The notes beneath the pieces were generated by a model. That model worked only from the letters and a program-made list of their open reading frames with translations. It searched no databases and was not told where the DNA came from. A program made the position numbers and the translations under genes. Of a stretch of 53,002 bases of DNA, positions 7,205-37,437 are shown piece by piece (position 1 is the stretch's first letter; each line of letters begins with the position of its first letter). The DNA comes from Eubacteriales bacterium (GTDB lineage Bacteria; Bacillota; Clostridia; Oscillospirales; CAG-272): positions 1 to 53,002 of the forward strand of contig JAZNXP010000124.1 of the NCBI GenBank assembly GCA_045593965.1. Direction: 5' to 3'.

Positions 7205-9001
7205 TTATTTGAAAATTTGATCGTAGGGAACGGTCAAGAGCTCGATGGACGGCTTTTGAGAAAAGCTCGTTCCGTAATTGATCACGCAAAACGTTTTTGT
7301 GCCACCGATGTTGCTGACAAACGATTCCGCATAGTAGGCATCTCCTCCCGTACCGCTGCGAGTGTCTAGGACGAGCTTGTTTTTGATGTGAAGCGTGTCG
7401 AAGTCAAATTCAAAAATCGCAAGCTCCTGCTCATTTTTGTTTTCGGTGGGAATGTTTCTTCCCATGAAATAGTACGTTCCGTTTTCCTTGAAGAAGGACG
7501 GGCGTCCCATATAGGAAATGCCTTGATAGGTGTCGGACAGATTGACCGATTTGAGCAATTCTCCGTTTGTGGTCATGCGCATCATATAGGAATAGCCGTC
7601 ATCTCCTCTGGAGAGAAGCACGAACACTCCGTTTTCCAAGAACAAGGCACTTTCGTTAATGCTGACACCAAGGAGTGATGTCAGGCTCGCGACGTGCGCA
7701 AAGCTTCGTCCGTTGTCCTCGGTCTTGATCAGATGCACGCTCCGTCCGTGACCTTGATTTTCAAGCTCGGGGAAGGTCATGGCAAGCATGTAAAGCGTGT
7801 TTCCGTCGATCACGCTATCGAAAACGTAGCCGTATTCGATGCCCGCATCGTCCTTGAGCGAGGTTGCCGCGCATTCGGAAAACTCCCCTCCGCTGATGCG
7901 GAAATGATAGGTGTAAATTCCCAGACGTGTGGAAGTTCCCTTTTGTTGAACGTCAACGTAAAGAACGGTCTCGCCGTTGGGCATGGTTACAAGCTCGGGA
8001 TTTTGGAAGCGTACCTCCTTGGAGGAGTCGACCGTGTGGGTGGCAATGACGCTGTTGTCGGAACGGTTCAGGATCGTGAGATCCAGATCGGAATGATCCG
8101 AGGTGTGCGAATATCCGCGCTTATAGGCGATCCACACCTCATCGCCGATGAGTGCCGTGGTGGGGAAGGCGAGATAATTGAGACTGTCCGTTACCTCGTC
8201 CGAGGAGACCAGCGGACTCTTGGTTACGTGCTTGATATCCGTGCTCGGAATATCGGGATCGGGAGGTGGAAGAAAGGGATCGACCGTGATCTTTGCAATG
8301 TCCATTCCGCCGAGTTCGCCCATCAGCGTGTTCCACGCATAGCAGGCTGCGGTTTTTCCTTGGTTGCGGAAGTGAAACAGTGCGCTATCCTCGCCTCTTC
8401 CGAGGGAGACGGCAAATTGACCTGCTTTCAAATAGGAACGAACGGTGATGTCTATCCATTCATTTACCTGATAGGAGCCAAACTGTGTTTCGGTGCTTCC
8501 ATCAAAGACGCATATCGCTCCCGTGGGACGGGCAACGATCTGGGAGAGCGGTTGATACGGATGATATGCGTCGGGGATCAGATTCAGCGTATAAGTGGAC
8601 AGTGCCGTAAAGCGGACACGGTAAGAAATCGTAAAGACGTCGTCGACCGCTTCAAAATCCAAAAACACGGAGGCACTGCCCTTTTTGGTGTCGTCCCGGA
8701 TAGACAAATAAGGCATGCCGTTCTCTGCTTTTAAGGAGACGTCGGTCGGCTTTCCGATCAGCTTCTTTGCGATGAAATAGGGAATGCCGTTTGAAAGATC
8801 GATCTCGACCTTGGTGGAAACAGGGGGCGTCTGTGTGCTTGGACCGCCCGAGGTCGTTTCCTGCGTGGAGAGCGTTGTTTGCTCGGTCGCTTGCGTGGTG
8901 GCTGCGGTCGTCGCGCTCGGTTGATCGGTGTTATTGCCGCATGCAAAAAGGGAAAACGAAAGACTGCATATCAGCAAAATCGCTAAAAATCTCGTTGTCA
9001 T
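7205..9001 (-). CDS. Lipoprotein, jelly-roll-like N-domain + beta-propeller-like C-domain (putative glycan-active, function unassigned)
   Basis: 598 aa. Signal peptide with lipobox SLFA|C, then a Thr/Gln/Pro-rich tether. The C-terminal half has a strand-rich pattern and one degenerate Asp-box (TEDNGRSF). It lies 29 nt downstream of the GH78 gene. It is not alignable by eye with the 14.2-kb propeller family. Confidence 0.5.
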   Translation of the reverse strand: MTTRFLAILLICSLSFSLFACGNNTDQPSATTAATTQATEQTTLSTQETTSGGPSTQTPPVSTKVEIDLSNGIPYFIAKKLIGKPTDVSLKAENGMPYLSIRDDTKKGSASVFLDFEAVDDVFTISYRVRFTALSTYTLNLIPDAYHPYQPLSQIVARPTGAICVFDGSTETQFGSYQVNEWIDITVRSYLKAGQFAVSLGRGEDSALFHFRNQGKTAACYAWNTLMGELGGMDIAKITVDPFLPPPDPDIPSTDIKHVTKSPLVSSDEVTDSLNYLAFPTTALIGDEVWIAYKRGYSHTSDHSDLDLTILNRSDNSVIATHTVDSSKEVRFQNPELVTMPNGETVLYVDVQQKGTSTRLGIYTYHFRISGGEFSECAATSLKDDAGIEYGYVFDSVIDGNTLYMLAMTFPELENQGHGRSVHLIKTEDNGRSFAHVASLTSLLGVSINESALFLENGVFVLLSRGDDGYSYMMRMTTNGELLKSVNLSDTYQGISYMGRPSFFKENGTYYFMGRNIPTENKNEQELAIFEFDFDTLHIKNKLVLDTRSGTGGDAYYAESFVSNIGGTKTFCVINYGTSFSQKPSIELLTVPYDQIFK

Positions 9002-11468: not shown

Positions 11469-12218
11469 TTACTTTTTGGGAGACGGTTTTGCACTCATGG
11501 ATACGCGTTTTGGGGAGATCCCGTAAGCGCGTCGGAACATGGTGGAAAACTGCGCCGAGTCCGAAAAGCCGCAAAGATACGCGATCTCGGTGCAGTTTTT
11601 TGAGGAGCTTTCCAGCATCAGCTTCGCTTGCTCCAATCTTTTGGAGATCAGATAGCTCTGCGGAGACGTTCCGTAGGCATCCTTGAAGCGATGTCGAAAG
11701 TAATCGTAGCCGTAACCGCAGCTTTTGGCAAGATCGGGAAAGCTGACGTCGGTATGATAGTTTTCATCCAAAAAACGCTTTGCGAGCGCAAGCTCGTTTT
11801 GCGGAATGCGCTTTTGCTTCTCACGCCGTCGCAAAAGCAGCACCAGCTCGTCCGTCAGCAGGGATATCATCTCCGTGCTGTCCGCAAGATGCAGACGCGC
11901 CTCTCGCAAAAGACGCTCGACTGTTTGTCTGATCAAGGGCTCTTCATCCTCGTAAAAGACGCATCCGTCGTCCAATTCAAGCGTTGTATCAAAGCCAATA
12001 CAACTAAGATTTGCGTCCTGAAGATGCCGCTCGTCGTGGAGCGTGTTCGGTGGAATCAGGGCGAATGTGTTTTTGGAGAACGCGTATTGCTTTTCTCCAA
12101 TCACGGTCTCGCCATTGCCGTTTTCATACCACACAAGCTCCCAACAGCTGTGTGAATGAGACGCAATATATTGATTTTTCTTCTTCTCGGAGGAAAAGAG
12201 AAAGACGATCGCGGACAT
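11469..12218 (-). CDS. AraC-family transcriptional regulator
   Basis: 249 aa. Cupin-like N-terminus and an AraC HTH C-terminus (FPDLAKSCGYGYDYFRHRFKDAYGTSPQSY ... IAYLCGFSDSAQFSTMFRRAYGISP). It is the first gene of the minus-strand rhamnosidase operon. Confidence 0.85.
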   Translation of the reverse strand: MSAIVFLFSSEKKKNQYIASHSHSCWELVWYENGNGETVIGEKQYAFSKNTFALIPPNTLHDERHLQDANLSCIGFDTTLELDDGCVFYEDEEPLIRQTVERLLREARLHLADSTEMISLLTDELVLLLRRREKQKRIPQNELALAKRFLDENYHTDVSFPDLAKSCGYGYDYFRHRFKDAYGTSPQSYLISKRLEQAKLMLESSSKNCTEIAYLCGFSDSAQFSTMFRRAYGISPKRVSMSAKPSPKK

Positions 12219-13787: not shown

Positions 13788-13810
13788 AATTTGAATCGGT
13801 ACGCTTGAGA

Positions 13811-13844
13811 AGCGGGGAACCTTCGGGATTCCCTGCTTTTTTTG
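13811..13844 (+). terminator. Intrinsic terminator after mgsA
   Basis: Stem gcggggaa (13812-13819) / ttccctgc (13829-13836, one G-U pair), 9-nt loop, then T7 (13837-13843). Confidence 0.7.
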
Positions 13845-14115
13845 CTTCTCTCTCGGAAAAAAGATAAAAATTTACAATTTCGACACGCATCCACCACAGT
13901 TTTGCAAGCAAGTAAAATTTTTTGTGATTTTTCACATTTTTAAGCGGCGAATTTCGTTCTTTTGTCCAAAACGCGTTTTTGACGATTGCTTAAAGAACTG
14001 CTCTTTTGAGAAATTTTCAAAACGGTATGCGTTATTTCGCCTGTTTTTGAATTTTGAAACGAATGTGAGATTGTATATAGAGACTCATTTTATAAAAAAG
14101 TGTCCGAATACTTGA

Positions 14116-14144
14116 TTGCCAATTTACAGATATTCAAGTAAAAT
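14116..14144 (+). promoter_or_regulatory. Putative sigma-A promoter at the head of the propeller island
   Basis: TTGCCA (14116-14121), 17-nt spacer, TAAAAT (14139-14144), about 100 nt upstream of the first lipoprotein gene. It sits inside a 457-nt AT-rich intergenic region. Confidence 0.4.
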
Positions 14145-14244: not shown

Positions 14245-15609
14245 ATGGGAAAAAACATCGCAAAAATGGCAATCTGCTTGCTTTTGTCCCTGACCTGCAT
14301 TCTCAGCGCGTGTGACAAGGGCTCGTCCGAGGATGAGCTGTTCGGCACGACCGCCGAGAAGAAAACGCAGGTGACCACGCAAGCGACCACCGAGGAGCCA
14401 AAGGCTGAGGTTCCCCATCTGGTTCCCGAGATCTTAGAAGAAAACACCAATCTGGTCATCGGACGCTTGAGCGAGCCCGTTGTCCGTCAGATCACGGATA
14501 AGATCAGCATCGATCTTCAGTATCAGGGCTGGCCCACGATCTGCGCGGGAGACGGCAACACCGTTTACGCGGCATCCTCCGTCCGCATCGGACACATCGA
14601 CCCGTTCGGCTGCATCGGCTTCTATAAGAGCGAGGACGGCGGACAGACCTGGTCGACCGTCAAGATCATTGCCGATACGCCCATCGATGACCGCGACGCG
14701 GGCATTGTTTATCTCGGTGGCGGCAAGATCCTGGTCAGCTGGTTTACGCACAACATTTCGAACTATATGCAGGGCGGACAGTATTACAATGACTGGAATA
14801 AGAAGGTCACGGATGAGCAGCGCGTTGCGGCGTTGAAGAAATTCGCCGAGCTGGATTATGCCGATCAGCAAGCGGCTTCCTACGTTATGCTCTCCAAGGA
14901 CTACGGTGAGACGTGGGATGAGCCCGTGAAGGTTCCTGTTTCCGCGCCTCACGGTCCTACCTTGATGCAGGACGGCAGAACCCTGCTTTATTTCGGAGAC
15001 CCCCACAACCCCAAGGGAATGGGCATTACCGATATGAAGCAGCACCACTACTATGCATACACCAGCCGCGATTACGGTAAGACATGGAACCGTTTTGCAG
15101 AGCTGAAGATTCCTTACACGAGCACGCAGACGTTTGACGAGCCGTATATGCTTCAGTTGCAGGACGGTACCTTCATTGCGGGTATCCGCGGTCACGTCAA
15201 CGAAGACAAAGAAGAGAACGGAAACGCCGCTTTGCGCGTCTTTATCTCGCATTCGGAGAACGGAAAGGTATGGGATGAATTCAAGGAGCTGGAAGGGACG
15301 GTCGGAACTCCTCCGCATTTCTTCCAGACAAAGGAAGGCGTTCTGATCCTTGCGTATTCTCACCGTCTTGAGCCGTGCGGCGCGCGCGGACGCATCAGCT
15401 ACGACAACGGATATACGTGGAGCGATGAATTCATCATTTCCGTTGTTGACGGCAGAAAGAGCGATGACCTCGGATATGCGTCAACTACGCAGCTGCCCGA
15501 CGGAACGCTTCTGACGGCTTACTACCAAAACTATTACTCGGGTGATAAGTATCGTTCTCTCCTCTATACCCGTTGGAGATTGGTAGATCCGAATGAAGCA
15601 ACGAAATAA
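14245..15609 (+). CDS. Lipoprotein L1: Thr-rich tether + sialidase-like (BNR/Asp-box) beta-propeller
   Basis: 454 aa. Lipobox ILSA|C. Four clear Asp-boxes: SEDGGQTW, SKDYGETW, SRDYGKTW and SYDNGYTW. Invariant family blocks are QYQGWP, SVRIGHIDP, DTPIDDRDAG, APHGP, DEPY..IR and GTPPHF. Confidence 0.8.
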   Translation: MGKNIAKMAICLLLSLTCILSACDKGSSEDELFGTTAEKKTQVTTQATTEEPKAEVPHLVPEILEENTNLVIGRLSEPVVRQITDKISIDLQYQGWPTICAGDGNTVYAASSVRIGHIDPFGCIGFYKSEDGGQTWSTVKIIADTPIDDRDAGIVYLGGGKILVSWFTHNISNYMQGGQYYNDWNKKVTDEQRVAALKKFAELDYADQQAASYVMLSKDYGETWDEPVKVPVSAPHGPTLMQDGRTLLYFGDPHNPKGMGITDMKQHHYYAYTSRDYGKTWNRFAELKIPYTSTQTFDEPYMLQLQDGTFIAGIRGHVNEDKEENGNAALRVFISHSENGKVWDEFKELEGTVGTPPHFFQTKEGVLILAYSHRLEPCGARGRISYDNGYTWSDEFIISVVDGRKSDDLGYASTTQLPDGTLLTAYYQNYYSGDKYRSLLYTRWRLVDPNEATK

Positions 15610-16975
15610 TCGGAAAACACGGTTTTTCGCGGTTCTGCTGACGTGCCTTTTGCTGTCGGCTTCCATTCTTCTCGGTGCTTGTAACGAGGGGGCGGGGGAT
15701 GACCCGCTGTTTTCCACGGAAGCGACCGCAAGAAGAACGAATGCGACACGGGCGACCTTGGCAACGGAGGCGGTTGACGATACTCCTATTCCGCACCTGA
15801 TTCCCGAAATTTTGGAAGAGAATACCAACCAAGTGATCGGGCGATTGAACACGCCCGTTGTACGGCAGATCAACAGTAAGATCGATATCAAACTTCAATA
15901 TCAGGGCTGGCCGACGGTCTGCGCGGGGGATGGAGATACGCTTTACGCAGTCTCCTCCGTCCGCCTGACGCATATCGATCCGTTCGGTTGCATCGGCTTT
16001 TACAAAAGCGAGGACGGCGGTAAGACATGGTCTGACGTCGAGATCATCGTGGATACTCCCATTGACGACCGTGACGCGGGGATCGTATATCTTGGAAATA
16101 ACCGCGTGCTCGTCAGCTGGTTCACACATGACGCTTCGAATTACATCGAGGGCGGCGAATGGTATGAGTCCTGGGCAAATCATAAGGACGTATCGAAGTC
16201 TCAACGCGATGCGGTTTTGAAAAAGCTTGCCAATCTTCCCGCCGCGGAAAAGCAGGCAGGATCGTACGTCATGCTTTCTCCCGACGGCGGAAAAACGTGG
16301 GAAATGCCCGTGCAGGTTCCCATTTCCGCACCGCACGGACCTACGCTGATGCGTGACGGAAAGACCTTGATCTATTTCGGAGATCCGCACAACCCGTCCG
16401 CCTGCGGAGAGGTCGGGCTGAACAGCAATCGGTATTACGTCTATATCAGCCCCGATTTTGGAAGGACTTGGGTGCAGAGGGCATCTCTCGGGCTTCCGAC
16501 AGTCAGTGGCTTTCGGTATGACGAGCCTCATATCCTGCAGCTGCGGGACGGCTCCTATATCGCCGCGATCCGAGGGCAAAAAATGAACGGAAGCAGCGAT
16601 TCCCTGTGTTGCTTCATCTCGCATTCGTCCGACGGGCGAAAGTGGAGCAATTTTGAAGCCTTGAAGGGAACGGTCGGCACACCTCCGCATTTCTTCCAGA
16701 CCAAGGAAGGAATTCTTGTGATCTCATATTCGTACCGTCTCGATCCGTGCGGTGCGCGCGGACGTATCAGCTACGACAACGGATATACGTGGAGCGATGA
16801 GATCATATTTTCACGGTCGGATACGCCATGGGACGGCGATCTCGGCTATGCCTCCACAACGCAGCTTTCCGACGGTACCATGATTACCGCTTACTATCAG
16901 AAAAAAGAAGAGGATACATATTGTTCGTTTCTCTTTACCCGATGGAGATTGGTAGAGGAGAACGAGGCAACGTAA
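15593..16975 (+). CDS. Lipoprotein L2, paralog of L1
   Basis: 460 aa. Lipobox LLGA|C. The start overlaps the L1 stop by 17 nt. In the 80-aa block from (I)xLQYQGWP to SWFTH, 65 of 80 residues are identical to L1 by my manual count. Confidence 0.8.
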   Translation: MKQRNNRKTRFFAVLLTCLLLSASILLGACNEGAGDDPLFSTEATARRTNATRATLATEAVDDTPIPHLIPEILEENTNQVIGRLNTPVVRQINSKIDIKLQYQGWPTVCAGDGDTLYAVSSVRLTHIDPFGCIGFYKSEDGGKTWSDVEIIVDTPIDDRDAGIVYLGNNRVLVSWFTHDASNYIEGGEWYESWANHKDVSKSQRDAVLKKLANLPAAEKQAGSYVMLSPDGGKTWEMPVQVPISAPHGPTLMRDGKTLIYFGDPHNPSACGEVGLNSNRYYVYISPDFGRTWVQRASLGLPTVSGFRYDEPHILQLRDGSYIAAIRGQKMNGSSDSLCCFISHSSDGRKWSNFEALKGTVGTPPHFFQTKEGILVISYSYRLDPCGARGRISYDNGYTWSDEIIFSRSDTPWDGDLGYASTTQLSDGTMITAYYQKKEEDTYCSFLFTRWRLVEENEAT

Positions 16976-16985
16976 AACAAAGGCA

Positions 16986-18446
16986 ATGAACCGTAACAAA
17001 AAGAAAATTTTAACCCTGCTGATCTGCATGATGCTTACCGTATCGGTATTTCTCGGCGCATGCGACAGCAACAAGCAAGGAAACAACGAGACCACCAAGG
17101 CAACGACCGAAGCGACTACGGGAGAAACCACCGAAGCAACAACAGAGACCACCGAAGTCACCACCGAAGCCACGACCGAGGCTACGACCGAGGCAACGAC
17201 GGCGGCGACCACGGCTCCACCCGAGCCCGTGGATCCATCGGAGCTTGTCAACACCCTGTTGGTGAACAGGCTGGAGATCAATCAGGCGGTCGGACATCTG
17301 AACACCCCCGTGGTACGGGAGATCGCCAACGGTGTGACGATCGATCTGCAGTATCAGGGCTGGCCGACGGTCTGCGCGGGAGACGGTAACACGCTTTATG
17401 CGGTTTCCTCCGTTCGCTTGACGCACATCGACCCCTTTGGATGCATGGGATTTTACGAAAGCCATGACGCGGGAAAAACGTGGTCCGAGGTGCGGATCAT
17501 TGTGGATACTCCCTTGGATGACCGCGATGCGGGCATCGTTTATCTCGGCGACGGAAAGATCCTTGTGAGCTGGTTCGTACATGCCGTGGACAATTACATT
17601 GAAAAAGGCGGTTGGTATTCCAACTGGTGCAACATGGTCAGCGAGGAGCAAAGGGTGACTGCTTTGGAAAAGCTGAACGGACTTTCCAAGGAAGAGAAGC
17701 GTTCCTGCTCCTACGTGATGCTTTCCAACGACTACGGCAAGACGTGGGATGAACCCACGAAGGTCCCCGTTTCCGCTCCGCACGGTCCCACGCTGATGCA
17801 GGACGGAAAGACCTTGATCTATTTCGGAGATCCGCACAATCCTTCTCAATGCGGAGAGACGCTGGAAAGCGGATATTTCTACTTCTACACCAGTACCGAT
17901 TACGGAAAAACATGGACGCGGTTTTCCCGCATCCAGACTCCGCTTTCGGTCGGAATGTATTTTGACGAGCCGCACGTGCTTCAATTGCAGGACGGTTCCT
18001 TCATCGCGGCGATCCGCGCGCAGGAGGTGGATGGAGGCGGAGATACTCTGCGGTGCTATATTTCCCGTTCCGAGAACGGACGCTCCTGGACACCTCTGAC
18101 CGCGCTTGACAAAACTGTGGGAACCCCTCCGCATCTGTTCCAATCCAAGGAAGGTGTTCTGATCCTTTCCTACGGTGACCGTGTCAACCCCTGCGGTGTG
18201 ATGATCCGCTTTAGTCTTGACGGCGGCGTAACGTGGTCTAAAAAAGAGGTTCAGCTCTGCGTTTCCGTCACTCCCTCCAACGGAGACCTCGGATATGCAT
18301 CCACCGTTCAGCTGGCGGACGGAAGCTTTATCACGACCTATTATCAGAAATACGATCAAAACGATACCTACTGTTCGCTGCTGTACACGCATTGGAGCTT
18401 CAGCGGACTGGATCGGATCGAAGAACTGTTATCCCAAGCTCAATAA
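16986..18446 (+). CDS. Lipoprotein L3, paralog of L1
   Basis: 486 aa. Lipobox FLGA|C. Long (TTEA)n tether. Same motif set as L1 (SHDAGKTW, SNDYGKTW, STDYGKTW, SLDGGVTW). Lies 10 nt after L2. Confidence 0.8.
   Translation: MNRNKKKILTLLICMMLTVSVFLGACDSNKQGNNETTKATTEATTGETTEATTETTEVTTEATTEATTEATTAATTAPPEPVDPSELVNTLLVNRLEINQAVGHLNTPVVREIANGVTIDLQYQGWPTVCAGDGNTLYAVSSVRLTHIDPFGCMGFYESHDAGKTWSEVRIIVDTPLDDRDAGIVYLGDGKILVSWFVHAVDNYIEKGGWYSNWCNMVSEEQRVTALEKLNGLSKEEKRSCSYVMLSNDYGKTWDEPTKVPVSAPHGPTLMQDGKTLIYFGDPHNPSQCGETLESGYFYFYTSTDYGKTWTRFSRIQTPLSVGMYFDEPHVLQLQDGSFIAAIRAQEVDGGGDTLRCYISRSENGRSWTPLTALDKTVGTPPHLFQSKEGVLILSYGDRVNPCGVMIRFSLDGGVTWSKKEVQLCVSVTPSNGDLGYASTVQLADGSFITTYYQKYDQNDTYCSLLYTHWSFSGLDRIEELLSQAQ
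17091..17216 (+). repeat. Imperfect 12-nt tandem repeat encoding the (T-T-E/K-A)n tether of L3
   Basis: Encodes TTKATTEATTGETTEATTETTEVTTEATTEATTEATTAATTA, from repeated accaccgaagc/acgaccgaggc units. Confidence 0.7.
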
Positions 18447-18474
18447 CAAGAATTTTTGAAAGGAATTTTTAACC

Positions 18475-19836
18475 ATGAAACGTAAGCAATTTGCGGCAAT
18501 GCTTTGCCTTCTGCTGGCATTTGTGTTCGTGCTTTCCGCTTGCGACAGCGGCTCGTCCGAGGAGGAGCTGTTTGGATCGACGGCGGCAAAAACGACCAAA
18601 GCAACGACGGCAACCACAGCTCCTCCCGTTGAGGATGACCCCATTCCCACCAACTTAACTGCCGAAATTCTGGAGTCCAATCTTCCGATCGGACATTTGA
18701 CTCCCGATAAGGCGATCACCGTTCCGATCGACGATAAGGAAAGCATCACGCTGAATTATCAGGGCTGGCCCACGATCTGCAAGGGTGAGGGCGATACGCT
18801 TTATGCCGTTTCCTCTCTCCGCATCGCACACGTCGACCCCTTCGGCGCGATCTGCTTCTATGAAAGTCACGACGGCGGTGTGACCTGGTCGGATCCCCGC
18901 ATCATCATCGATACCCCTCTGGATGACCGTGACGCGGGCGTTGTTTACCTCGGAAATAACAGATTGCTCGTTTCCTGGTTCACGCATGATACCCCCGGTT
19001 ATTTTGAAAACACCGACCCAACGTGGACGAAGTGGCACAACATGGTTTCCTCCGATCAGAAAAAGGCGTTGACAAACAAATGGAATCAGCTGGATGCAAC
19101 GCAGAGGATCGGTCAATCCTATACCGCGATCTCCACGGACGGAGGACTTACCTGGTCCGAGCCCTCTGCCGTTCCCGTAACGGCACCTCACGGTCCCACG
19201 CTCGGAAACGACGGCAGAACCCTGATGTATATCGGCGCGTTGAAAAATCCGAAATCCTGCGGCTTTGAGGATATGAAGGCTTATAACCTTTACGTGATCA
19301 AAAGCACGGACTTCGGAAAGAGCTGGAAGGTCGAGGCAGAGCTTCCTTTCCCTTATAAATCCACCAACGGAAGCGGAGAAAAATTCATTTTCGGTGAGCC
19401 TTACATTCTGCAGCTCCGTGACGGCAGCTACATTGCGGCTGCGCGCGGACAGTGGGGATATGACAATGACGCGATGCGCGTATATCTCGCGTACTCCGAT
19501 GACGGACGCAACTGGACGGATTTCAAAGAGGTGGAAGGTCTTGTCGGTGCTCCCGCGCATTTCTGCCAGACCAAATCGGGTGTTCTGATCATGTCCTATT
19601 CCTACCGCGTTTCTCCTGCAGGCTCTCGCGCACGCTTGAGCTATGACGGCGGAAAAACGTGGTCGGAGGAGATCACGCTTTGCGTTTCCGCTACGCCGAA
19701 CAACGGTGACCTTGGATATCCCTCCACGGTCGAGCTGGACGACGGCACTCTGATCACCGCGTACTATCAGCGCGTAGGGTCCGATTCGAACGCATCCTTC
19801 CTGTTCACACGCTGGAAGCTGGTGGAAGCCGAATGA
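18475..19836 (+). CDS. Lipoprotein L4, paralog of L1
   Basis: 453 aa. Lipobox VLSA|C. Blocks NYQGWPTICKGEGDTLYAVSSLRIAHVDP, SHDGGVTW, STDGGLTW, STDFGKSW and SYDGGKTW. Confidence 0.8.
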   Translation: MKRKQFAAMLCLLLAFVFVLSACDSGSSEEELFGSTAAKTTKATTATTAPPVEDDPIPTNLTAEILESNLPIGHLTPDKAITVPIDDKESITLNYQGWPTICKGEGDTLYAVSSLRIAHVDPFGAICFYESHDGGVTWSDPRIIIDTPLDDRDAGVVYLGNNRLLVSWFTHDTPGYFENTDPTWTKWHNMVSSDQKKALTNKWNQLDATQRIGQSYTAISTDGGLTWSEPSAVPVTAPHGPTLGNDGRTLMYIGALKNPKSCGFEDMKAYNLYVIKSTDFGKSWKVEAELPFPYKSTNGSGEKFIFGEPYILQLRDGSYIAAARGQWGYDNDAMRVYLAYSDDGRNWTDFKEVEGLVGAPAHFCQTKSGVLIMSYSYRVSPAGSRARLSYDGGKTWSEEITLCVSATPNNGDLGYPSTVELDDGTLITAYYQRVGSDSNASFLFTRWKLVEAE

Positions 19837-19915
19837 TCATATCGCGATAGAAGGGGGACGTTGTTCCTTCCCAACGCCGCGAACGATCTGCTTTTATCTT
19901 ACAAAGGAGATTTTT

Positions 19916-21226
19916 ATGAAACACACTTTGAAATTGATTTTGTTAGGTGTATTGGCACTCTCCATGCTTCTGTGCGCCTGCGATAATTCCTCGGACGAGA
20001 ATTTCTTCGAGAACAGCACCACGGCAAAAAAGACCACTGCGGCAACGCAGGCAACGACGGCACCGAAGCAAGAAGTCGAGATCCCGACCAACCTGACTGC
20101 GGAGATTTTTGAACACAACAAGCCCCTATCCGTTCTGACCGATAACCCTGTGGTAAGACCGATCGGAAACACGGGCGTGGATATCGAATTGACCTATCAG
20201 GCATGGCCCACGGTCTGCAAAGGAGACGGTGACACGCTTTATGCGGCATCCTCTCTGCGCCGCAATCACATCGATCCCTTTGCGGCAACCGGGTTCTACG
20301 TCAGCCATGATAACGGCAAGACATGGAGCGACGTGAAGGTCATCAATGACAGTCCCATCGACGACCGCGATACGGGTATCATTTATCTGGGTGGCGGAAA
20401 GCTGGTGGTTTCTTACTTCACCATTAGTGCAAATGATTTCAAGCCCAACGGTCAGTACGAGACGAAATGGGGTGGCTGCACCGACGAGCAGAAAAAGGCA
20501 AAGCTGAGGGAATGGAGCACCTATACCGAAGCAGAGCTTGCAGCCTTCCACGGAAGCTTCCTGCTGCTCTCCAACGATTACGGCGAGACTTGGGAAAAGG
20601 TAAAGGCACCCGTTTCCTGTCCGCACGGACCTTCGTTGATGAACGATGGCAGAACCCTGATCTATCCAGGTGTTTCCAGTACCAAGCTGTTCTTCTATAT
20701 CAGCCGTGATTTCGGCAAGAACTGGTCGCTGTATGCCGAAGTGAATATGCCCAAGCTCGATCCCGGATGCGGCTATTGGGAGCCTCACGTGATCCAGCTT
20801 TCCGACGGATCGTTCGTCGCGGGTATCCGAACGGGTGGCGATAACCGTGAGTTGGGCATTCTGATCACAACCTCGGATGATGGCAAAAACTGGACACGTC
20901 CGGAAGAGGTAGAGGGAATTGTCGGCGCACCTCCGCATTTCCTGGAATTGGATAACGGTGTGATCGTTTTGACCTTCTCTGACCGTGTCGGTCCCGACAT
21001 TGGCGCACGCGCTCGGTTGAGCTATGACAGAGGCAAGACGTGGACCGAGACCGATATCGACCTCAGCTTCCACACCAGCTCCAGAAATTCCGACCAAAGC
21101 TATCCTTCCACGGTTCAGCTGGATGACGGAAGCCTGATCACGATCTACTATCAGGCATACGCGAACGATCCAAACGCTTCCGTGCTTTATACCAGATGGC
21201 GTCTGAACGAGGTCGAGGGAGAATAA
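19916..21226 (+). CDS. Lipoprotein L5, paralog of L1
   Basis: 436 aa. Lipobox LLCA|C. Blocks TYQAWPTVCKGDGDTLYAASSLRRNHIDP, SHDNGKTW, SNDYGETW, SRDFGKNW and SYDRGKTW. AAGGAG RBS. Confidence 0.8.
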   Translation: MKHTLKLILLGVLALSMLLCACDNSSDENFFENSTTAKKTTAATQATTAPKQEVEIPTNLTAEIFEHNKPLSVLTDNPVVRPIGNTGVDIELTYQAWPTVCKGDGDTLYAASSLRRNHIDPFAATGFYVSHDNGKTWSDVKVINDSPIDDRDTGIIYLGGGKLVVSYFTISANDFKPNGQYETKWGGCTDEQKKAKLREWSTYTEAELAAFHGSFLLLSNDYGETWEKVKAPVSCPHGPSLMNDGRTLIYPGVSSTKLFFYISRDFGKNWSLYAEVNMPKLDPGCGYWEPHVIQLSDGSFVAGIRTGGDNRELGILITTSDDGKNWTRPEEVEGIVGAPPHFLELDNGVIVLTFSDRVGPDIGARARLSYDRGKTWTETDIDLSFHTSSRNSDQSYPSTVQLDDGSLITIYYQAYANDPNASVLYTRWRLNEVEGE

Positions 21227-21270
21227 CTTTTCTTCCTTTTATAAAGAGCTTCTTACAGCAATCAAAAACA

Positions 21271-21327
21271 CCCTCCGCCGTAAGCGCGACGGAGGGGAAG
21301 AAGCCCGATGCTTCCGCACGAGGAAGC
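21271..21327. repeat. Two REP-like GC hairpins in the L5-L6 spacer
   Basis: First hairpin ccctccgccg...cgacggaggg (21271-21296, one mismatch). Second hairpin gcttcc-gcacga-ggaagc (21310-21327). Same flavour as the hairpins at 1-400. Confidence 0.5.
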
Positions 21328-21381
21328 GGGGGTATGAAAAAAAGATGCTATGGAAACTTGAAAAAGCAAGGAGCTTCAATT

Positions 21382-22589
21382 ATGAAAAAATTGATTCCTG
21401 AATTTTACGTCAAAAACGAGGCGTTGGCACACCTTGTCGGGGAAAAGGCGATTCCCGTAAAGGTGGATGAGGACAACACGGTCTATCTCGATTATCAAGG
21501 CTGGCCTTCAATTTGCAAAGGTGAAGGAGATACGCTTTACGCGGCATCGTCTCTTCGCATCGCCCACGTCGATCCCTTTTCCGTGACCGCGTTCTTCAAG
21601 AGCGAGGACGGCGGAAAGACATGGAGTGAACCTAAGATCATCAACGATACTCCCACCGATGACAGGGACACGGGTATTCTTTACATGGGCAACGGCAGAT
21701 TGCTCGTGACCTTCTTCACCATTCCCCAAGGGATTTCAAAGAGGGCGGCAGCTATCAAAGAGCGTGGGGAGGCTGCTCTGAGGAGCTCAAGGCTGCAAAG
21801 CTGAAGTCCTGGGAAGCACTCACACCCGAGCAGGAGGCGGAGATCGACGGTGCGTTCATTCTTCTTTCCGAGGATTACGGCGAGACGTGGACGAAGCCCA
21901 TCCGCGTGCCGCTCACCGCGCCGCACGGTCCTTCCTTGATGCAGGACGGCAAGACGCTCCTGTTTCTCGGAAAAGCATCGTATCCCGAAAAGTATCCCGG
22001 CTTTGAGAAGATCGGATTTGGCTATCATTCCGCATTCAGCCACGATTGGGGTAGGACGTGGGAATACGGCGGAACGGTTCCGCTTCCCGAGCTCGATCAA
22101 GGCTGGGGTTATTGGGAGCCATACGCGATCCAGCTCAAAAACGGAGAATTTCTCGGTGCGATCCGCACGGGCTGTATCGACAACAGCGTGATCAAGGATA
22201 ATTCCAACCGTACGCTGGGCGTTATGATCACGCACTCCAAGGACGGCAAGGAGTGGACGATGGGAGAGAAGATCCCGAACGTCTGCGGCGCACCGCCACA
22301 CCTTCTCGAATTGCCGAACGGAGCGATCCTGCTGGTGTATTCTCACCGCCTGCCGCACTGCGGAGCGAGAGGCCGCATCAGCTACGATGGCGGATACACC
22401 TGGAGCGATGAGGAGATCATCATCAGCGAAAGCACCGATCCCAACAATTACGATCTTGGTTATCCTTCCACTGCGATGCTGGATGACGGCACACTGATCA
22501 CCACTTATTATCAGGCATACAAAAACGACAAGCATCCCTCCACGCTCTACACCAGATGGCGTTTGAACGAAACCGATGGGGATATCTGA
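21382..22589 (+). pseudogene. L6: propeller paralog lacking signal peptide and tether, interrupted by a 1-nt frameshift
   Basis: Starts MKKLIPEFYVKNEAL (AAGGAG RBS at 21368-21373), at the strand that follows the tether in the other paralogs. The first frame reads ...LLVTFFTI and then runs into nonsense and a stop at 21804. From 21723 the other frame reads SPRDFKEGGSYQRAWGGCSEELKAAKL, which aligns with L5 ISANDFKPNGQYETKWGGCTDEQKKAKL, and stays open to 22589. One missing base at ~21723/21724 (att|cccc) explains it. A sequencing error cannot be excluded. Confidence 0.55.
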
Positions 22590-22630
22590 AAATTTCCTTT
22601 TCCCCTTCCAAATCAGAAAGGAGAAAATCT

Positions 22631-24088
22631 ATGAAATTCAAAAACGTACTGACCGCAATGCTTTGCTTCCTTCTTATATGCTCCTGTCTGCTGACGTCCT
22701 GTGATCAGCAGAACGATGAAAACAAACCGAGCCAAACGACGGGGCAAACGACCGAAGCCACCACCAATCAAACAAATGAAACGACAGGAGTGACAACCGA
22801 CATGAACAACGAGACCACACAGCAAACCACGGCAGGCGGAGCGACTCCGATCCAGCCCCCCACCAATTTATACGAAAAGATCTACGTTGCGGGCAAGCCC
22901 GTATCCCGATTGCTCGATGAGCCTGTCACCGTGGAGATCGCCAACGGCGTGACGGTCGATCTGGATTATCTTGGATGGCCCAGCATCTGCGTGGATGAAA
23001 ACGACGTGATCTACGTTGCGGCGTCCTTGCGTCTGCAGCACGTTGACCCGTTGGGCGCGACCGCATTCTTCAAGAGCGAGGACGGTGGCGAGACATGGAG
23101 CAAGCCGCGCATCATCTTCGACGGCCCTTTGGATGACCGCGATGCGGGACTAATCTATCTGGGCAACGGAAAAATGCTGGTATCCTGGTTTACGCATTAC
23201 AGACACGAATATCTTGAGGGCGGCGGATACAGCAACTGGTTGAACTTCAAGGAGCTGACCCAAGAGCAAAAGGACGCGATCAAGGTGAGAATGGCAAGCG
23301 CGGAAGGGTATGAGGCGGAGAGAAGCTCCTACGTCATGCTTTCCGATGATTACGGTGAAACCTGGGGCGAGCCCATCCGTGTTCCCGTATCCACCCCCCA
23401 CGGACCTTCCTTGATGAACAACGGAGATCTGATCTACCTCGGACGTGAATGGAATTCCGCATCCTGCGGCATCCCGTTGGCGACCGTCAGCGCGACCTCG
23501 CATTACAATCCGCTTTACGCGTTCGTCAGCTCGGACGGTGGGCAGACGTGGCAATACAGATCTCACATCGCGGTTCCCAAGATCGACGGCAAGTTCTGCG
23601 AGCCGCACACGATCCAGCTTTCCAACGGACGCATCCTTTGCTCAATCCGCGTGCAGGGAAATGCAAGTGATGAAGTACCGTACGGCTTTACCGTTTACAC
23701 CTGTTATTCCGACGATAACGGAAAGACATGGACACTGCCTACGTTGATCGAGGATCTTTGCGGATCTCCTCCTCATCTGCTTGAAATGGATAACGGCGTG
23801 CTTCTGATGGTGTACGCTTGCAGATATCAGGGAAGGCAGTTCGGTCAAAAGGCAAGATTGAGCTTTGACGGCGGAGAAACGTGGTCGGACCGTGAGATCC
23901 TTCTGGATACCGCGATGGATAGCGACATCGGTTATCCCGCAACGGTACAGCTTTCGGGCGGAACGCTGATCACGATCTACTACCAGAAGTACGGATACGA
24001 TTCCAAGTGCTCGATCCTCTATACCAAGTGGAAGCTGTTCACGCCCGAGGAAATGCGAGAGCTTGAACAGCGGAAGAACAACGGCTGA
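22631..24088 (+). CDS. Lipoprotein L7, divergent paralog intermediate between lipoprotein type and giant-protein type
   Basis: From ORF 22556..24088. I start it at MKFKNVLTAM (ATG 22631, AAAGGAG RBS). Lipobox LLTS|C. The block DYLGWPSICVDENDVIYVAASLRLQHVDP shares CVDEN with the G-type domains. Confidence 0.8.
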   Translation: MKFKNVLTAMLCFLLICSCLLTSCDQQNDENKPSQTTGQTTEATTNQTNETTGVTTDMNNETTQQTTAGGATPIQPPTNLYEKIYVAGKPVSRLLDEPVTVEIANGVTVDLDYLGWPSICVDENDVIYVAASLRLQHVDPLGATAFFKSEDGGETWSKPRIIFDGPLDDRDAGLIYLGNGKMLVSWFTHYRHEYLEGGGYSNWLNFKELTQEQKDAIKVRMASAEGYEAERSSYVMLSDDYGETWGEPIRVPVSTPHGPSLMNNGDLIYLGREWNSASCGIPLATVSATSHYNPLYAFVSSDGGQTWQYRSHIAVPKIDGKFCEPHTIQLSNGRILCSIRVQGNASDEVPYGFTVYTCYSDDNGKTWTLPTLIEDLCGSPPHLLEMDNGVLLMVYACRYQGRQFGQKARLSFDGGETWSDREILLDTAMDSDIGYPATVQLSGGTLITIYYQKYGYDSKCSILYTKWKLFTPEEMRELEQRKNNG

Positions 24089-24159: not shown

Positions 24160-25656
24160 ATGAAAAAAGTAGTCACACTTCTGCTGTGCTTGCTGATGAT
24201 CGTTCCGCTTGTGCTTTGCGCTTGCAACAACAGTGGCGACGACGAAGGCGAGACCACGCAGGCGACAACGCTTCCCAGTGCCGAAGAGCAGGAAAAGGAC
24301 GCGACCATTGAAAACTGGTTGCCGATCCAGAGCTACGGCGTTGACGGCGGCAAGCGTCAGGTCAATATGCTGACGTGCAAGGACTATAACCGCAAGTATT
24401 ATTTCTTCCGCACCGATGACGGAAACGGCGATACGCTGGCGGCATCCTCTTACAGAAGATTTTGTAAGATGGAAGAGACCTACGACGTCGTGATGCAGAC
24501 GATCGAGCCTACCGATGGCGACATTCTGCATACGCTGTCCTCCTCCTTGATGGGACAGGGCGGTGAATACGACCTCGTATATCCCCATCCGACCTCCGAA
24601 ATGCAGGCAATTCTGGAGAACGGCTTCTACGAAAACCTTTATAACTATGAAAATATTCACTTGGAGCAGCCTTGGTGGAGTCAGAACCAGGTCAACTCCT
24701 ATACCATCGACGATAAGCTTTACATCGCCGTTTCGGATTTTTCTCTGAGCGGACAGGGCTTCATCGGTCTGATCTTCAACCGTGAGATCTATAACGATCT
24801 TCAGATTGAAGAGGATCTTTACGATCTGGTCGAAAATAACGCGTGGACGATCGCTAAGATGCGTGAGATCGTCATGAAGTACGGAACCGATTCCAACGGT
24901 GACGATAAGTACGACGAAAACGACCACTACGGATTTATCTATCAGCCCCAGCATACCAAGAATTTCTATTGGTCCTTCGGCGGAAAAATCGTTGAGAAGG
25001 ACGGCAACAACGATTATTATCTCGCAATTGATAATGATACTACCAACACCATGGCAACGGCGCTTTACAATCTTGCATACAACAGCGAGAACAAGGTGTT
25101 CGTTTCCAATCCGTGCGTATACGATACCTTCGCGGACTCCAACGGTTGGGCGATGTTCAAGAGCAGACAGGGCTTGTTTATGACCTATGACCTTGGCGGT
25201 CTGTATTCGCATCTGAACGAGATCCAATTCAAGATCGGCTATCTGCCCTACCCGAAGCTGACCGATGAGCAGACCGAGTATCCCGTTGTTTGCGCGGCAG
25301 GCTTCTTCGCAATCCCGAAGAAGGCACCCGACGCGGTAATGAGCAGCGTGCTTCTTGAGGCTTGCTCGATCTATAGCTATTCCAACTACCGTCCCACTTT
25401 CTTCAACACCATCCTTCTGGGTAGAATGTCCGAGCAGGCTGAGGACTACGCAATGCTTGAATTCCTCCACGAGAACAAGGTGTTTGACATGGGCTTTACC
25501 TTCCCCGCAGGCGGTTCCGATAACCTTCTGTATTGGGCGGTTGTCGGTGACGGCGAGCCCGGTGCTCTCGCATCCTTTATTCAGGCACGTTGGAGAGATA
25601 TGGACGATACTCTCGATTACATTGAAAACATCCGAAACGGTAAATTTGAAGGATAA
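24160..25656 (+). CDS. Extracellular solute-binding lipoprotein (ABC-type, family-1-like), no cognate permease in window
   Basis: 498 aa. Lipobox LVLCA|C followed by an acidic tether. The size and Trp/Tyr-rich two-lobe pattern (QPWWSQNQ, FYWSFGGKIV, GWAMFKSRQGLF) are typical of the ~500-aa sugar-binding lipoproteins of Firmicutes. Confidence 0.6.
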   Translation: MKKVVTLLLCLLMIVPLVLCACNNSGDDEGETTQATTLPSAEEQEKDATIENWLPIQSYGVDGGKRQVNMLTCKDYNRKYYFFRTDDGNGDTLAASSYRRFCKMEETYDVVMQTIEPTDGDILHTLSSSLMGQGGEYDLVYPHPTSEMQAILENGFYENLYNYENIHLEQPWWSQNQVNSYTIDDKLYIAVSDFSLSGQGFIGLIFNREIYNDLQIEEDLYDLVENNAWTIAKMREIVMKYGTDSNGDDKYDENDHYGFIYQPQHTKNFYWSFGGKIVEKDGNNDYYLAIDNDTTNTMATALYNLAYNSENKVFVSNPCVYDTFADSNGWAMFKSRQGLFMTYDLGGLYSHLNEIQFKIGYLPYPKLTDEQTEYPVVCAAGFFAIPKKAPDAVMSSVLLEACSIYSYSNYRPTFFNTILLGRMSEQAEDYAMLEFLHENKVFDMGFTFPAGGSDNLLYWAVVGDGEPGALASFIQARWRDMDDTLDYIENIRNGKFEG

Positions 25657-25676
25657 ACGCTCCCAAAATGGAACAG

Positions 25677-25696
25677 ACTCCGTCACGTGACGGAAT
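25677..25696. promoter_or_regulatory. Palindrome with CACGTG core upstream of G1 (candidate operator)
   Basis: ccgtcacgtgacgg (25680-25693) is a perfect 14-nt palindrome, extendable to 20 nt with one mismatch. Its centre is ~38 nt upstream of the G1 ATG. Confidence 0.3.
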
Positions 25697-25724
25697 CTGC
25701 TTCGAAGCAATTACAGGAGGATAT

Positions 25725-28700
25725 ATGAAATATCAATATCAACGCATCGTATCCCTCTTTCTTGCCTTACTGACGGTATTCACGGCGGTGTCGGTGCCTG
25801 TTTTCGCGGAGGATGCAACCGCAAACGCTTCCACGCAAGAGGCACTCGAATCGATCTACGATTCCGTTGGATATTCACAAGAGCTGGCAGAGGGACGCCG
25901 CATCGATCTGACGAACATTCCGACGCTGAACGGAGTCACAAATCCCACAGCGAGGGCGTATAAGATCGATAGCCTTGCGGCATATCAGAATTTTGTAACA
26001 CTTGTCAATAACGGAAACACCTTCTCGGGCAAGACCGTGTATCTGGCGTGCAATCTGGATCTTTCCTCGATTGCAAATCAAGCACCCATTGGATTTAACA
26101 AGGGTGCGGAGACAACGGCGAACACCTTTACGTCCACCGCGTCCGCGAAATTTTCGGGAACGCTGAACGGTCAGGGCTATGCCATCACGGGCATTTCCAT
26201 CACCAAGACGCTCGTTGACACCTGCTATTCCGCGTTCATCGGCTGGGCAGTCAACACAACCGTGACCGACCTTGTTCTCTCGGGAACGGTCGTGCATGAA
26301 AAAGGAACCTATTCGGGTTTGAACAACTTTGTCGGCACGGGCGGTCTGATCGCATGCGCGGAAGGTACGAATACGGTCGATAACGTATATTGCGACATCG
26401 ACGTCAAGGGCTTGCGCCAGACTGCGGGCTTCATCGCACGCGGCGGCGCGACGGTTACGAATTCGACCAATGCGGGCGACGTCATCGGCTCGGATTGCGC
26501 AGGCGGCTTCTTCGGCTTCGCAAGCGGAACTCTTTCGGCAACCAACTGTCTCAATACGGGACGTATGCAGGCAGGAAAGGTTGCGGGTATTCTGCCGCGC
26601 GGACGTACAACAACAACCATCGCAAATTGCGTGAACGCAGGTACGATGGTCGCTACGAACGGTGGTTATGCAGGTGGTATCGTCGGTGTGACGGATCACG
26701 CAAACGCAAAGGTCACCGTTTCGGGCTGTACCAACAGCGGACGTATCGTTTCCGACGGTCAAGCGAACGATTTCGGTACGCAGAATGAAGGTACGCTGAC
26801 GGTGGCAAGCGATAACAAATCGGTTCCTTACATTGGTTATAACGCAGAAGCATTCCTTGCGGTGGATCTGACCTCTGTTCCGAACATCACCGAATGGACC
26901 TCTTCCTCCACCGCGACGACGTATCAGATCACAAACGCGGCGGGACTGGTAAAGCTTTCCGAGATCGTCAGAGCAGGGAACAGCCTGAGCGGCAAGAAGG
27001 TCTATCTGGCAAACGATATCAACATGGCAGACGTAACGCTTCTGCCGATCGGTAAGTATGTCAATAGCGCGACGATGGAAAATCCCGCCAAAACTCCTTT
27101 CTCGGGGATCTTTGACGGACAGGGACACGCGATCAAAAATTTGAGCATGACCTTCTCCGAGGAGACCGAGGTCGGCTTTGGATTGTTCGGATTGCTCTCT
27201 TCGGCAACCGTTCGCAATCTGATCATTGATCAGAGCTGTACCTTTGAGGATACGATCAACAGCGGATATACGGGCATGGCTGCCATCGCGGGCTATTCGG
27301 AAGGCGCAACAACGATCACAAACGTGGCAACCTATGCGACCCTGACCTCCAAGGCACACGCGGCAGGTATGGTCGGACGCGGCGGTGTGGCAAGCATTAC
27401 GTACTGCGAAAACCGCGGAACGATCACCACCAACAACTGCGCAGGCGGTATGACAGCGTTCCGTGTTGGCGGCGCGATCAAAAATTGCGTGAACTACGGA
27501 ACGATCAATTCAAGTGCTGCGGGCGGTTTGATCGGACGTGTTTCGCATGCTGTGACGTATCAGGATCTTGTGAACTACGGCACGGTGCTTGCCAGCGGTT
27601 GGGCAGGCGGTATCGTGGGACGTACCATGGATAACGCTCTGACGCTGAACCGTTGCATCAACTACGGTTCCGTGAACGGTCACAACAGCGACGTGCTTGT
27701 GGATGGAATGTATACCGTTTGGACGGCAGAAGGCTGCAAGGGCAACGTCACGATGATCGAGTGCAGCAACCTCTATCGGGTCGGTTACAATGCGGCGAGA
27801 GTTGCCGACGTTCCGCTTCCCGTTTATGACATCAAGCATTACGATAGCATGGCAAAGCAGACGGCATACGTCGTCAGAGATGCCGAGGGCATGATCAAGC
27901 TTGCCGAGATCGTCAATGCGGGCAATACGCTCGCGGGTGTGACGGTCTATCTGACAAACGACGTCAACCTGTTTGGCAAAACGATGCTTCCCATCGGTAC
28001 GTCCACTCCCTTCAGCGGTACGTTCGACGGCAGAGGCTATGCGATTCGCGGACTGACGATGAAGATTGATTGCTCGGTAGAGGGCAATCCCAATCTGATC
28101 GGTCTGTTCGGATACGTCAGCCACGGCACCGTCAAAAATCTGACCGTGGATGCGACCTGCTCCTTTGTGCAGACGGGTGAGGATTCCACCTATTCGGGCT
28201 CGGCTTCCGCAATCGTTGCAAAGGCTAACGTCGTAACGGTTGAAAACGTCAAGAACCAAGCCAACGTCACGGGCATTCTGCACACGGGCGGCATTGGCGG
28301 ACGCGGCTCGATCTCCGCATCCTACTGTGTCAACACAGGTACGATCAAGGGTGCGAACAGCGCGGGCGGTATTTTCGCATACGCGACCAATGACGTTCTC
28401 GATTGCGTGAACTACGGAGACGTCTCTGCGGATAACGCAACCAACGGCGGTAAAGCAGGCGGTATTACGGGACGTCAGGAAAACGAAAACGTAAGATATA
28501 TCAACGCGTATAACCACGGTGTTGTCACCTCCGACTATATGGCAGGCGGTATCATGGGTGCCGTCAGAGTCGGTTGTTATATGCTCAACTGTGTCAACTA
28601 CGGCGTGGCGGCTCCTCTGCCGGGACACGACGTGATCACATCCAATCGCTACAACGTGGAAAAGGGCTATGCTCCCCAGTTCTCGGGCATGACCGTTTCG

Positions 28701-37352: not shown

Positions 37353-37377
37353 TCTCCCACATTTGAATTTCAATTTG

Positions 37378-37408
37378 CCCCAAGGGACGTTTCAAAGGTC
37401 CCTTGGGG
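37378..37408 (+). promoter_or_regulatory. Intercistronic hairpin without U-tract (G2-G3 spacer)
   Basis: Perfect 11-bp stem ccccaagggac / gtcccttgggg with a 9-nt loop. It shares the caagggac core with the G1-G2 hairpin. No T-run. Confidence 0.55.
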
Positions 37409-37437
37409 ATAGCCAACAAAGAAAGTTAACTGAATTT

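Follow-up and report, generated by a model that had tools for sequence, protein, structure and literature searches.

The closest described relatives of the proteins considered here are the GH33 sialidases (S. typhimurium NanH, 3sil/2sil; S. pneumoniae NanB; R. gnavus NanH), which are six-bladed propellers with Asp boxes in the hairpins between strands 3 and 4 of the blades. Classical retaining sialidases use an arginine triad, a Tyr/Glu pair, an Asp as acid/base and an Arg/Asp pair on O4 of the sugar (PMC4510645, PMC6811678). Precedents for ulosonic-acid glycosidases with non-classical sites are GH143 (BT1020), a Dha hydrolase that keeps the Tyr–Glu pair and acts on a plant-wall sugar, and GH156, in which the carboxylate is bound by two arginines and an asparagine (PMC6811678); they are built of five blades (GH143) and as a TIM barrel (GH156), unlike the six-bladed family described below. 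A further relative is 5hx0 (Dfer_1899 of Dyadobacter fermentans), a structure of unknown function for which no paper was found. Here, we analysed a stretch of 53,002 nucleotides (hereafter the window), contig JAZNXP010000124.1 of the assembly GCA_045593965.1 from an Eubacteriales bacterium (Clostridia; Oscillospirales; CAG-272), which contains a tandem array of seven propeller genes at 14245–24088. The main new point is that, to judge from the sequences, the array represents a "sialidase" family without a defining sialidase residue and with an invariant signature of its own. The array copies were named L1–L7, three giant proteins with the same propeller G1–G3, and two downstream signal-less genes S8 and S9.

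The intact array copies, the giants and S8/S9 all matched Pfam BNR_2 (PF13088) with 49–78 bits against a cut-off of 31.4, and BNR/Asp-box repeats were matched as well. Of the two fragments of L6, which is interrupted, the C-terminal one scored 34.0 bits against BNR_2, and the 140-aa N-terminal one gave no match. The L1 propeller was modelled by AlphaFold2 (AF2) from an alignment of 62 sequences, which gave six four-stranded blades (pLDDT 95.3, pTM 0.94), and each copy has four canonical and one degenerate Asp box (S-x-D-x-G-x-T-W) in the C–D loops. When this model was compared with the PDB by Foldseek, 5hx0 was at the top (TM 0.69–0.75), followed by GH33 sialidases, fungal KDNases and the P. 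aeruginosa pseudaminidase with TM of about 0.6 and 12–18% identity; the probability was 1.0 for the GH33 structures, and BT1020 was absent from the top 50 matches. In the sequence search of the PDB with a single protein 5hx0 was the only match, and the family profile detected it with an E value of 1e-35 and the GH33 chains with E values of 1e-14 to 1e-9. The C-terminal motifs E, R, G-x-P-x-H, R and D-L-G-Y-P are common to 5hx0 and the array family, but the overall identity is 18% and the N-terminal half of 5hx0 aligned poorly. A full scan for the family collected 1370 clusters (representatives at 50% identity) at E ≤ 1e-30 and 10437 at E ≤ 1e-10. The top matches were mostly 350–380 aa long, and since they were matched from about residue 2–15, most of them were judged signal-less; the names "exo-alpha-sialidase" and "Neuraminidase" that members carry in their sources are automatic. 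The GTDB species set, scanned with a 12-sequence alignment, contained the family in uncultured Clostridia of sheep, deer, buffalo, horse and human (Hadza) gut, e.g., Oscillospiraceae, Faecousia, Avispirillum and "Ruminococcus", nearly always with one copy per locus. The NCBIfam and PADLOC scans gave no matches, nor did Rfam on the whole window.

Blades 1–2 of the family profile aligned in register with the S. typhimurium sialidase, by which Y-Q-[G/A]-W-P was placed on Y-F-R37-I-P and R60 on R56. At position 41, the site of the RIP arginine, 266 diverse family members had Gly in 197 and Ala in 58 cases and Arg in none, and the residue hand-aligned to the sialidase Glu that clamps this arginine was Gln. 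The alignment with NanB was also in register and the family residues E245 and R261 fell on one NanB segment, which we take to hold Glu541 and Arg557. R320 lies after the blade-5 B strand and Y357 (in D-x-G-Y) before the blade-6 A strand, with a sialidase-like spacing from R261. Full-length alignment to the S. typhimurium NanH (of phage Fels-1) by hhalign, hmmalign or a C-terminal sub-profile resulted either in a slip of one blade or in nothing. The arginine triad lacks its (F/Y)RIP member and two other invariant arginines (R261, R320) are present; of the putative Tyr/Glu pair, the Glu is supported by the NanB register and the Tyr by its invariance at the start of blade 6. Twelve residues (Trp42, R60, H63, D94, R96, D97, H182, E245, R261, R320, D354 and Y357) were conserved in at least 97% of the 266 members, all but Trp42 in more than 98%, and H304 in 95%. 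The blade-1 B–C loop, where sialidases have their Asp acid/base, carries the invariant H63, and position 65 was Cys in 169 and Asp in 89 of the members, the clade of the window having Asp. In the topology of the model all conserved residues are at the starts of A strands or the ends of B strands, that is, on one face of the propeller. They are present in all 12 window domains with a single exception (His304 replaced by Gln in G3), which bears out the invariance of the active-site-like blocks claimed by the sequence-only reading.

Thus, the array copies are six-bladed Asp-box propellers of the sialidase superfamily and not canonical GH33 enzymes, because the arginine triad is incomplete, though most of the sialidase features are kept. 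The features in common with GH33 include a conserved Glu where blade 4 begins and a conserved Tyr where blade 6 begins, as the putative catalytic pair, Arg at the presumed second and third triad positions, and an Arg/Asp pair that matches the O4-binding pair (PMC4510645); lipid or surface anchoring and multidomain giant forms occur among sialidases, too. Unlike GH33, the array family has Gly/Ala in place of the RIP arginine, Gln in place of the clamping Glu, His-x-Cys/Asp in the presumed acid/base loop, three extra invariant His, namely H63, H182 and H304, and a DDRD block, its sequence identity to GH33 is only 12–18%, it has no nan gene context and its typical member is a signal-less protein of 360–380 aa. 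Because the pocket is remodelled in this way, the sugar is probably not plain Neu5Ac (N-acetylneuraminic acid). Activity as a canonical Neu5Ac sialidase is doubtful, and a different sugar, of the ulosonic-acid type or related to it, may be the substrate. By analogy, a two-arginine ulosonic-acid site is conceivable, since GH156 uses two arginines and an asparagine and GH143 keeps the Tyr–Glu pair. The His/His/His plus Cys-or-Asp pattern could equally form a metal site or serve a different sugar, and the DDRD block could supply the acid.

The array itself consists of seven homologous ORFs (open reading frames) arranged head-to-tail on the + strand, and both its limits and the spacings of −17, 10, 28, 79, 155 and 41 nt given by the sequence-only reading proved exact. 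The first gene, L1 (14245–15609), is overlapped by 17 nt by L2 (15593–16975), and these are followed by L3 (16986–18446), L4 (18475–19836), L5 (19916–21226), L6 (21382–22589) and L7 (22631–24088). At the DNA level the repeat families comprised 7 copies with a period of 1300–1475 nt and 60–86% identity in conserved blocks, and the same DNA repeat analysis found no near-identical segments or recent conversion tracts in the window. The amino acid identity among the copies is 40–64%: 64% for L1–L2, 60% for L2–L3, 56% for L1–L3, 51% for L5–L6, about 50% between L4 and L1–L3, and about 42% between L7 and all others. Neighbours are most alike, as had been proposed, the identity decreasing with the distance of positions both for L1–L7 (Spearman rho −0.52; 58 of the 5040 gene orders were as extreme) and for all 12 propeller domains (rho −0.69; 1 of 5000 orderings). 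The motifs proposed to mark this gradient were found as well: QYQGWPT[IV]CAGDG is common to L1–L3 and CKG[ED]GDTLYA.SSLR to L4–L6, and CVDEN links L7 to the giants; (C)VDEN also occurs in S8/S9. The entry-strand motif suggested to precede every propeller does not hold for L3, the entry segment of which does not match it.

In neighbour-joining trees (200 bootstraps) the branching mirrored the gene order, ((((L1,L2),L3),L4),(L5,L6)), with L7 apart; L7 grouped with the propellers of the giants and S8/S9 in two trees and fell just outside the L1–L6 clade in the third. A second, larger array was found in the assembly GCA_054278435.1 (locus L001), where a backbone of GH78, AraC, IUNH and MGS genes with 84–93% amino acid identity to the window is followed by 12 tandem propeller copies (R1–R12), then an SBP-like (solute-binding-protein-like) gene and a giant. 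Most copies of the window paired with their own counterparts in this locus, namely (L2,R1) with a bootstrap of 98, (L3,R2) with 100, (L4,R4) with 92, (L5,R8) with 100, (L6,R10) with 100 and (L7,(R11,R12)) with 100, and L001 carries additional L4-type and L5-type copies. The pair R5/R6 of this locus (L001 12768–14102 and 14159–15499) has almost identical first 48 residues, covering the signal and the tether, and propellers of different clades (L4-type and L5-type); this chimeric pair shows that recombination takes place within such arrays. In GCA_052829965.1 (L046) a ppa-obg-der-rSAM-MGS backbone with 79–93% identity is followed by one lipoprotein propeller (L046 8583–9950, 55% identical to L1), an SBP-like gene and giants; the GH78-AraC-IUNH segment is missing from this syntenic site. 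Copy-number variation in related genomes, which the sequence-only reading had suggested as a check, was thus confirmed, with 1, 7 or 12 copies at one syntenic site (GCA_052829965.1, the window and GCA_054278435.1, respectively). The metagenome-assembled genomes (MAGs) GCA_017502365.1 and RGIG5479 contain largely separate expansions of at least 12–13 copies, including a run of five signal-less copies (C1–C5) and a run of five lipoproteins. The stepwise tandem duplication proposed earlier is therefore supported both by the tree, which follows the gene order, and by the pairing of most copies with their own L001 counterparts at bootstraps of 92–100, and tandem duplication with long-term retention is well supported. 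As in other birth-and-death tandem glycosidase families, neighbours are most alike, copy number varies (1/7/12), gains are lineage-specific and one pair is chimeric, but this array is unusually deep (40–64% identity) and the family occurs in three localisation classes within one co-oriented 39-kb block. The array is real and old: the assembly artefact that the sequence-only reading had named as an alternative was ruled out by the divergence of the copies, which are at most about 77% identical in nucleotides over a few hundred bases, and by the synteny of the locus across independent assemblies.

Divergence between the window and L001 was estimated pairwise by the NG86 method, with synonymous divergence (dS) near saturation. 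The lipoprotein pairs were 60–73% identical in codon alignments, with a nonsynonymous divergence (dN) of 0.21–0.35 and dN/dS of 0.14–0.23, as opposed to dN of 0.05–0.10 in the flanking genes. Their dS was also raised (1.2–1.8), about twice that of the flanks and of L6 (0.6–0.96), which suggests hidden paralogy or the exchange of diverged alleles at the locus; the apparent lipoprotein orthologs may be the nearest survivors of birth-and-death or exchanged alleles.

L6 differs from the other copies. The array had been described as seven tethered lipoproteins, which is correct for L1–L5 and L7 and does not apply to L6, which has neither signal peptide nor tether: its N-terminus is MKKLIPEF, preceded by a good Shine–Dalgarno site (AAGGAG). 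Relative to its ortholog R10 it has lost one T in a TTT run near 21722, and the resulting frameshift yields two ORFs at 21196–21804 and 21906–22589. We consider L6, from its sequence and that of R10, to be a strongly constrained, conserved and presumably cytoplasmic paralog rather than a decayed lipoprotein, because R10, a protein of 402 aa, is uninterrupted, likewise has no signal peptide and shares 90% identity with it, with dN of 0.054, dS of 0.88 and dN/dS of 0.06. Either the deletion arose very recently or the homopolymer was misread in sequencing.

Variable sites of L1–L7 were mapped by the strand and loop topology of the model, where the D–A and B–C loops were assigned to the active-site face on the basis of our own alignments of the catalytic positions and the Asp-box C–D hairpins to the opposite face (PMC4510645). 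The B–C loops had a mean pairwise identity of 0.27, with 60% of their sites below 0.2, versus 0.54–0.61 for the strands and bottom loops, and nearly all insertion columns were in top-face loops; the strong divergence of the segments between the conserved blocks, noted earlier, was thereby reproduced. The largest variable element is a helical insert of about 42 aa (propeller residues about 115–156) in the blade-2 B–C loop, and the giants and S8/S9 have a longer version of it. We presume that the inserted domain (I-domain) of NanB, NanI and NanA lies at the same topological place. In the ortholog-like pairs dN of the top loops was about twice that of the core, and dN/dS (omega) was still about 0.2. 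The alternative of drift, defined in the sequence-only reading by scattered variation and dN/dS near 1, is contradicted by the concentration of the variation on the active-site face and by the gene-wide dN/dS of 0.14–0.23, and the sequences are consistent with isoenzymes of diverged specificity.

By pattern match, the N-termini of L1–L5 and L7 consist of a basic n-region and a hydrophobic core followed by a lipobox (LSAC in L1, with Cys23, LGAC in L2 and L3, LSAC in L4, LCAC in L5 and LTSC in L7), and L6, S8 and S9 fail the lipobox pattern [LVI][ASTVI][GAS]C. The tethers of the six predicted lipoproteins are 31–58 aa long (31 aa in L1, 58 aa in L3, 55 aa in L7) and contain 44–71% Thr/Ala/Glu. 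That of L3 is encoded by a 12-nt tandem repeat at 17091–17200, giving TTEA units; a TTEATTEA tether was seen again in R2, the closest L001 counterpart of L3, and in C9 of the separate L002 array. A sigma-70-like promoter candidate (TTGCCA-17-TAAAAT, 14116–14144, + strand), which is a consensus match only, is located in the AT-rich 457-nt gap before L1, and a terminator-like hairpin follows MGS at about 13810–13845. No convincing + strand terminator was found between L1 and L5; the 155-nt L5–L6 gap contains a GC-rich hairpin of 10 bp with 8 G–C pairs (21271–21296), which has a T-run on the minus strand only. Ribosome-binding sites are clear for L1 and L4–L7 and weaker or poorly spaced for L2 and L3. 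From the translational coupling proposed for L1–L4, that of the overlapping L1/L2 pair appears plausible, and the rest was not upheld since the other genes have ribosome-binding sites of their own.

The array is part of a 13-propeller locus that includes lipoprotein, giant surface-protein and cytoplasmic forms. It is followed on the + strand by a 498-aa lipoprotein gene (24160–25656) encoding a divergent relative of ABC-type solute-binding proteins, with the location conserved in two related genomes. No Pfam match was obtained for the protein itself, and its homologs at 42–46% identity carry PF13416/PF01547. Neither this protein nor the N-terminal part of G1 matched any PDB sequence. In another Clostridia MAG, five tandem SBP-like lipoprotein paralogs (508–558 aa) were observed beside dTDP-rhamnose biosynthesis genes (L047 2996–11548). 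Next come the giant secreted proteins G1 (25668–31595), G2 (31680–37352) and G3 (37363–42954), each with a C-terminal propeller of the array family, and the signal-less paralogs S8 (43082–44515) and S9 (44588–46018), 63% identical to each other, all on the + strand. The proteins encoded at 46210–48834 (874 aa) and 49055–52834 (1259 aa) have no Pfam match; they are built from the N-terminal repeat modules of the giants (FxGxFDGxGHxI, AGGIxG-type) and end in a Thr/Pro-rich linker and the membrane anchor GCGxTVxGGxAVIxLVSGAAVTxxKKKED. The 13th propeller belongs to unk598 (7205–9001, − strand). This lipoprotein of 598 aa is encoded downstream of the genes for the AraC regulator (11469–12218) and the GH78 rhamnosidase; it has a Thr-rich tether and combines a CBM-like (carbohydrate-binding-module-like) beta-sandwich with a very divergent sialidase-fold propeller. 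Its AF2 model (pLDDT 80) resembles two-domain sialidases (NanB, NanC, P. gingivalis) and 5hx0, with BT1020 at Foldseek rank 39 as a partial match of 178 columns. Six homologs were found, two of them as fusions with GDSL/SGNH esterase and "Sialidase-like CBM" domains, and the L001 counterpart is 64–66% identical.

Taken together, we consider it rather probable that the locus encodes a battery of remodelled sialidase-type retaining exo-glycosidases with shared chemistry and differing pocket loops, deployed on the surface, on giant proteins and in the cytoplasm. The locus itself represents a birth-and-death tandem expansion of one uncharacterised sialidase-superfamily family in an uncultured Oscillospirales-type Clostridia bacterium of the herbivore or human gut. 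The enzymes would employ the Tyr/Glu nucleophile pair as sialidases do, and the two arginines and the Arg/Asp pair would hold the sugar; the paralogs would differ in the loops of the pocket, chiefly in the blade-2 B–C insert, so that the array may act as an isoenzyme set for differently linked or decorated glycans. The surface copies L1–L5 and L7 on membrane tethers and G1–G3 on wall-spanning giants would trim polymers outside the cell, the 498-aa solute-binding-like lipoprotein may capture the products, and the signal-less L6, S8 and S9 would complete the breakdown inside. Several points weigh against this proposal. Because one defining sialidase residue is absent, we infer both catalysis and substrate, and the third arginine and the tyrosine are putative assignments from motif, spacing and invariance. 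An omega of about 0.2 does not show positive selection, in any propeller it is usually the loops that vary most, and strict orthology of the lipoprotein pairs is doubtful because their dS is about twice that of the flanking genes. The window has no ABC permease or sugar-catabolic genes, and the Pfam-scanned context of 28 single-copy relatives and four further loci revealed no conserved catabolic partner; AraC regulators were frequent around the single-copy relatives, and the DHDPS-family genes seen there look, at least in part, like lysine-pathway neighbours, since they occur with DapB in at least three of six loci. Finally, the literature on the family, PF13088, 5hx0/Dfer_1899 and triad-less sialidase folds yielded no characterised member. 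In GCA_052829965.1 (L038 5602–11218), a signal-less family member was observed at the end of a co-oriented gene run encoding a TIM barrel similar to xylose isomerase, an unknown protein of 436 aa, a sugar aminotransferase of the DegT type and a transporter (Mem_trans), with AraC upstream; this single occurrence is a possible catabolic context.

It is possible, and we put it forward tentatively, that these proteins form a distinct glycoside-hydrolase family, or another catalytic type, on the sialidase fold, which lost the RIP arginine and its clamp, gained the His/His/His, Cys-or-Asp and DDRD elements, maybe to bind a metal or to recognise a non-sialic sugar, and expanded in a few gut Clostridia to 12–13-copy batteries, distributed among membrane surface, giant wall proteins and cytoplasm, for a chemically heterogeneous glycan. 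The opposite view, according to which the copies are canonical GH33 Neu5Ac exo-sialidases for host mucin or milk sialoglycans, as their automatic annotations say, agrees with the sialidase fold, the Asp boxes, the conserved Glu, Tyr and two Arg, the Arg/Asp pair resembling the O4-binding residues and the animal-gut source. We regard it as improbable, however, given that the RIP arginine is replaced by Gly/Ala in 255 of 266 members and is never Arg, the clamping Glu is Gln, most members have Cys at the position of the acid/base-loop Asp, the neighbourhood contains no nan catabolic genes, and most relatives are signal-less proteins of 360–380 aa, including ones from soil and from Chloroflexi- and Planctomycete-like contexts.

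The remaining explanations concern the forces that maintain the array. An arms race, in which the exposed copies with the same enzymatic function diversify under phages, host antibodies or competitors and the array serves as a stock of surface-protein variants, would account for their low identity between related genomes (55–73% in amino acids versus 90% for L6 and 84–93% for the flanks), for their dN of 0.21–0.35 versus 0.05 in L6, for the similarly low 64–66% identity of the exposed unk598, and for the location of the variation on one outward face; their raised dS and the chimeric R5/R6 pair also suggest exchange of alleles or segments. Yet even the top loops have an omega of about 0.2, recent conversion tracts and near-identical segments are missing from the window, the distinct paralog types predate the species split, which fits fixed functional classes, and signal-less copies, on which exposure cannot act, are also tandemly expanded elsewhere (C1–C5), so this explanation appears unlikely to us. 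Dosage amplification, where redundant copies do the same job and are kept solely for more enzyme output, is more doubtful still: the identical putative catalytic residues in every copy and the location of all copies on one strand behind one promoter-like site would suit it, but dosage arrays are normally young and near-identical, and these copies are only 40–64% identical with saturated dS, each type has been retained separately across species, and around the pocket there are strong differences in loops and indels. That the array is a product of mis-assembly or a decaying set of pseudogenes could be suspected from the probable short-read MAG origin of the contig and from the frameshift of L6. 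The chance of this is nearly negligible, considering that the copies are too diverged for mis-assembled repeats, the architecture recurs in independent assemblies, six copies are intact with omega of 0.14–0.23, and L6, with omega of 0.06, is interrupted by a single homopolymer indel that may be a sequencing error.

The locus offers a clean example of birth-and-death at one syntenic site, where 1, 7 or 12 copies are present, and a natural specificity panel of six surface, three giant-protein and three cytoplasmic variants with identical putative catalytic residues. If the remodelled pocket means a new substrate, carbohydrate metabolism in the gut and in the environment would have a sizeable blind spot in this family, and the sialidase counts of metagenomes would be inflated by this automatically annotated family, which comprises at least 1370 clusters at 50% identity (E ≤ 1e-30).

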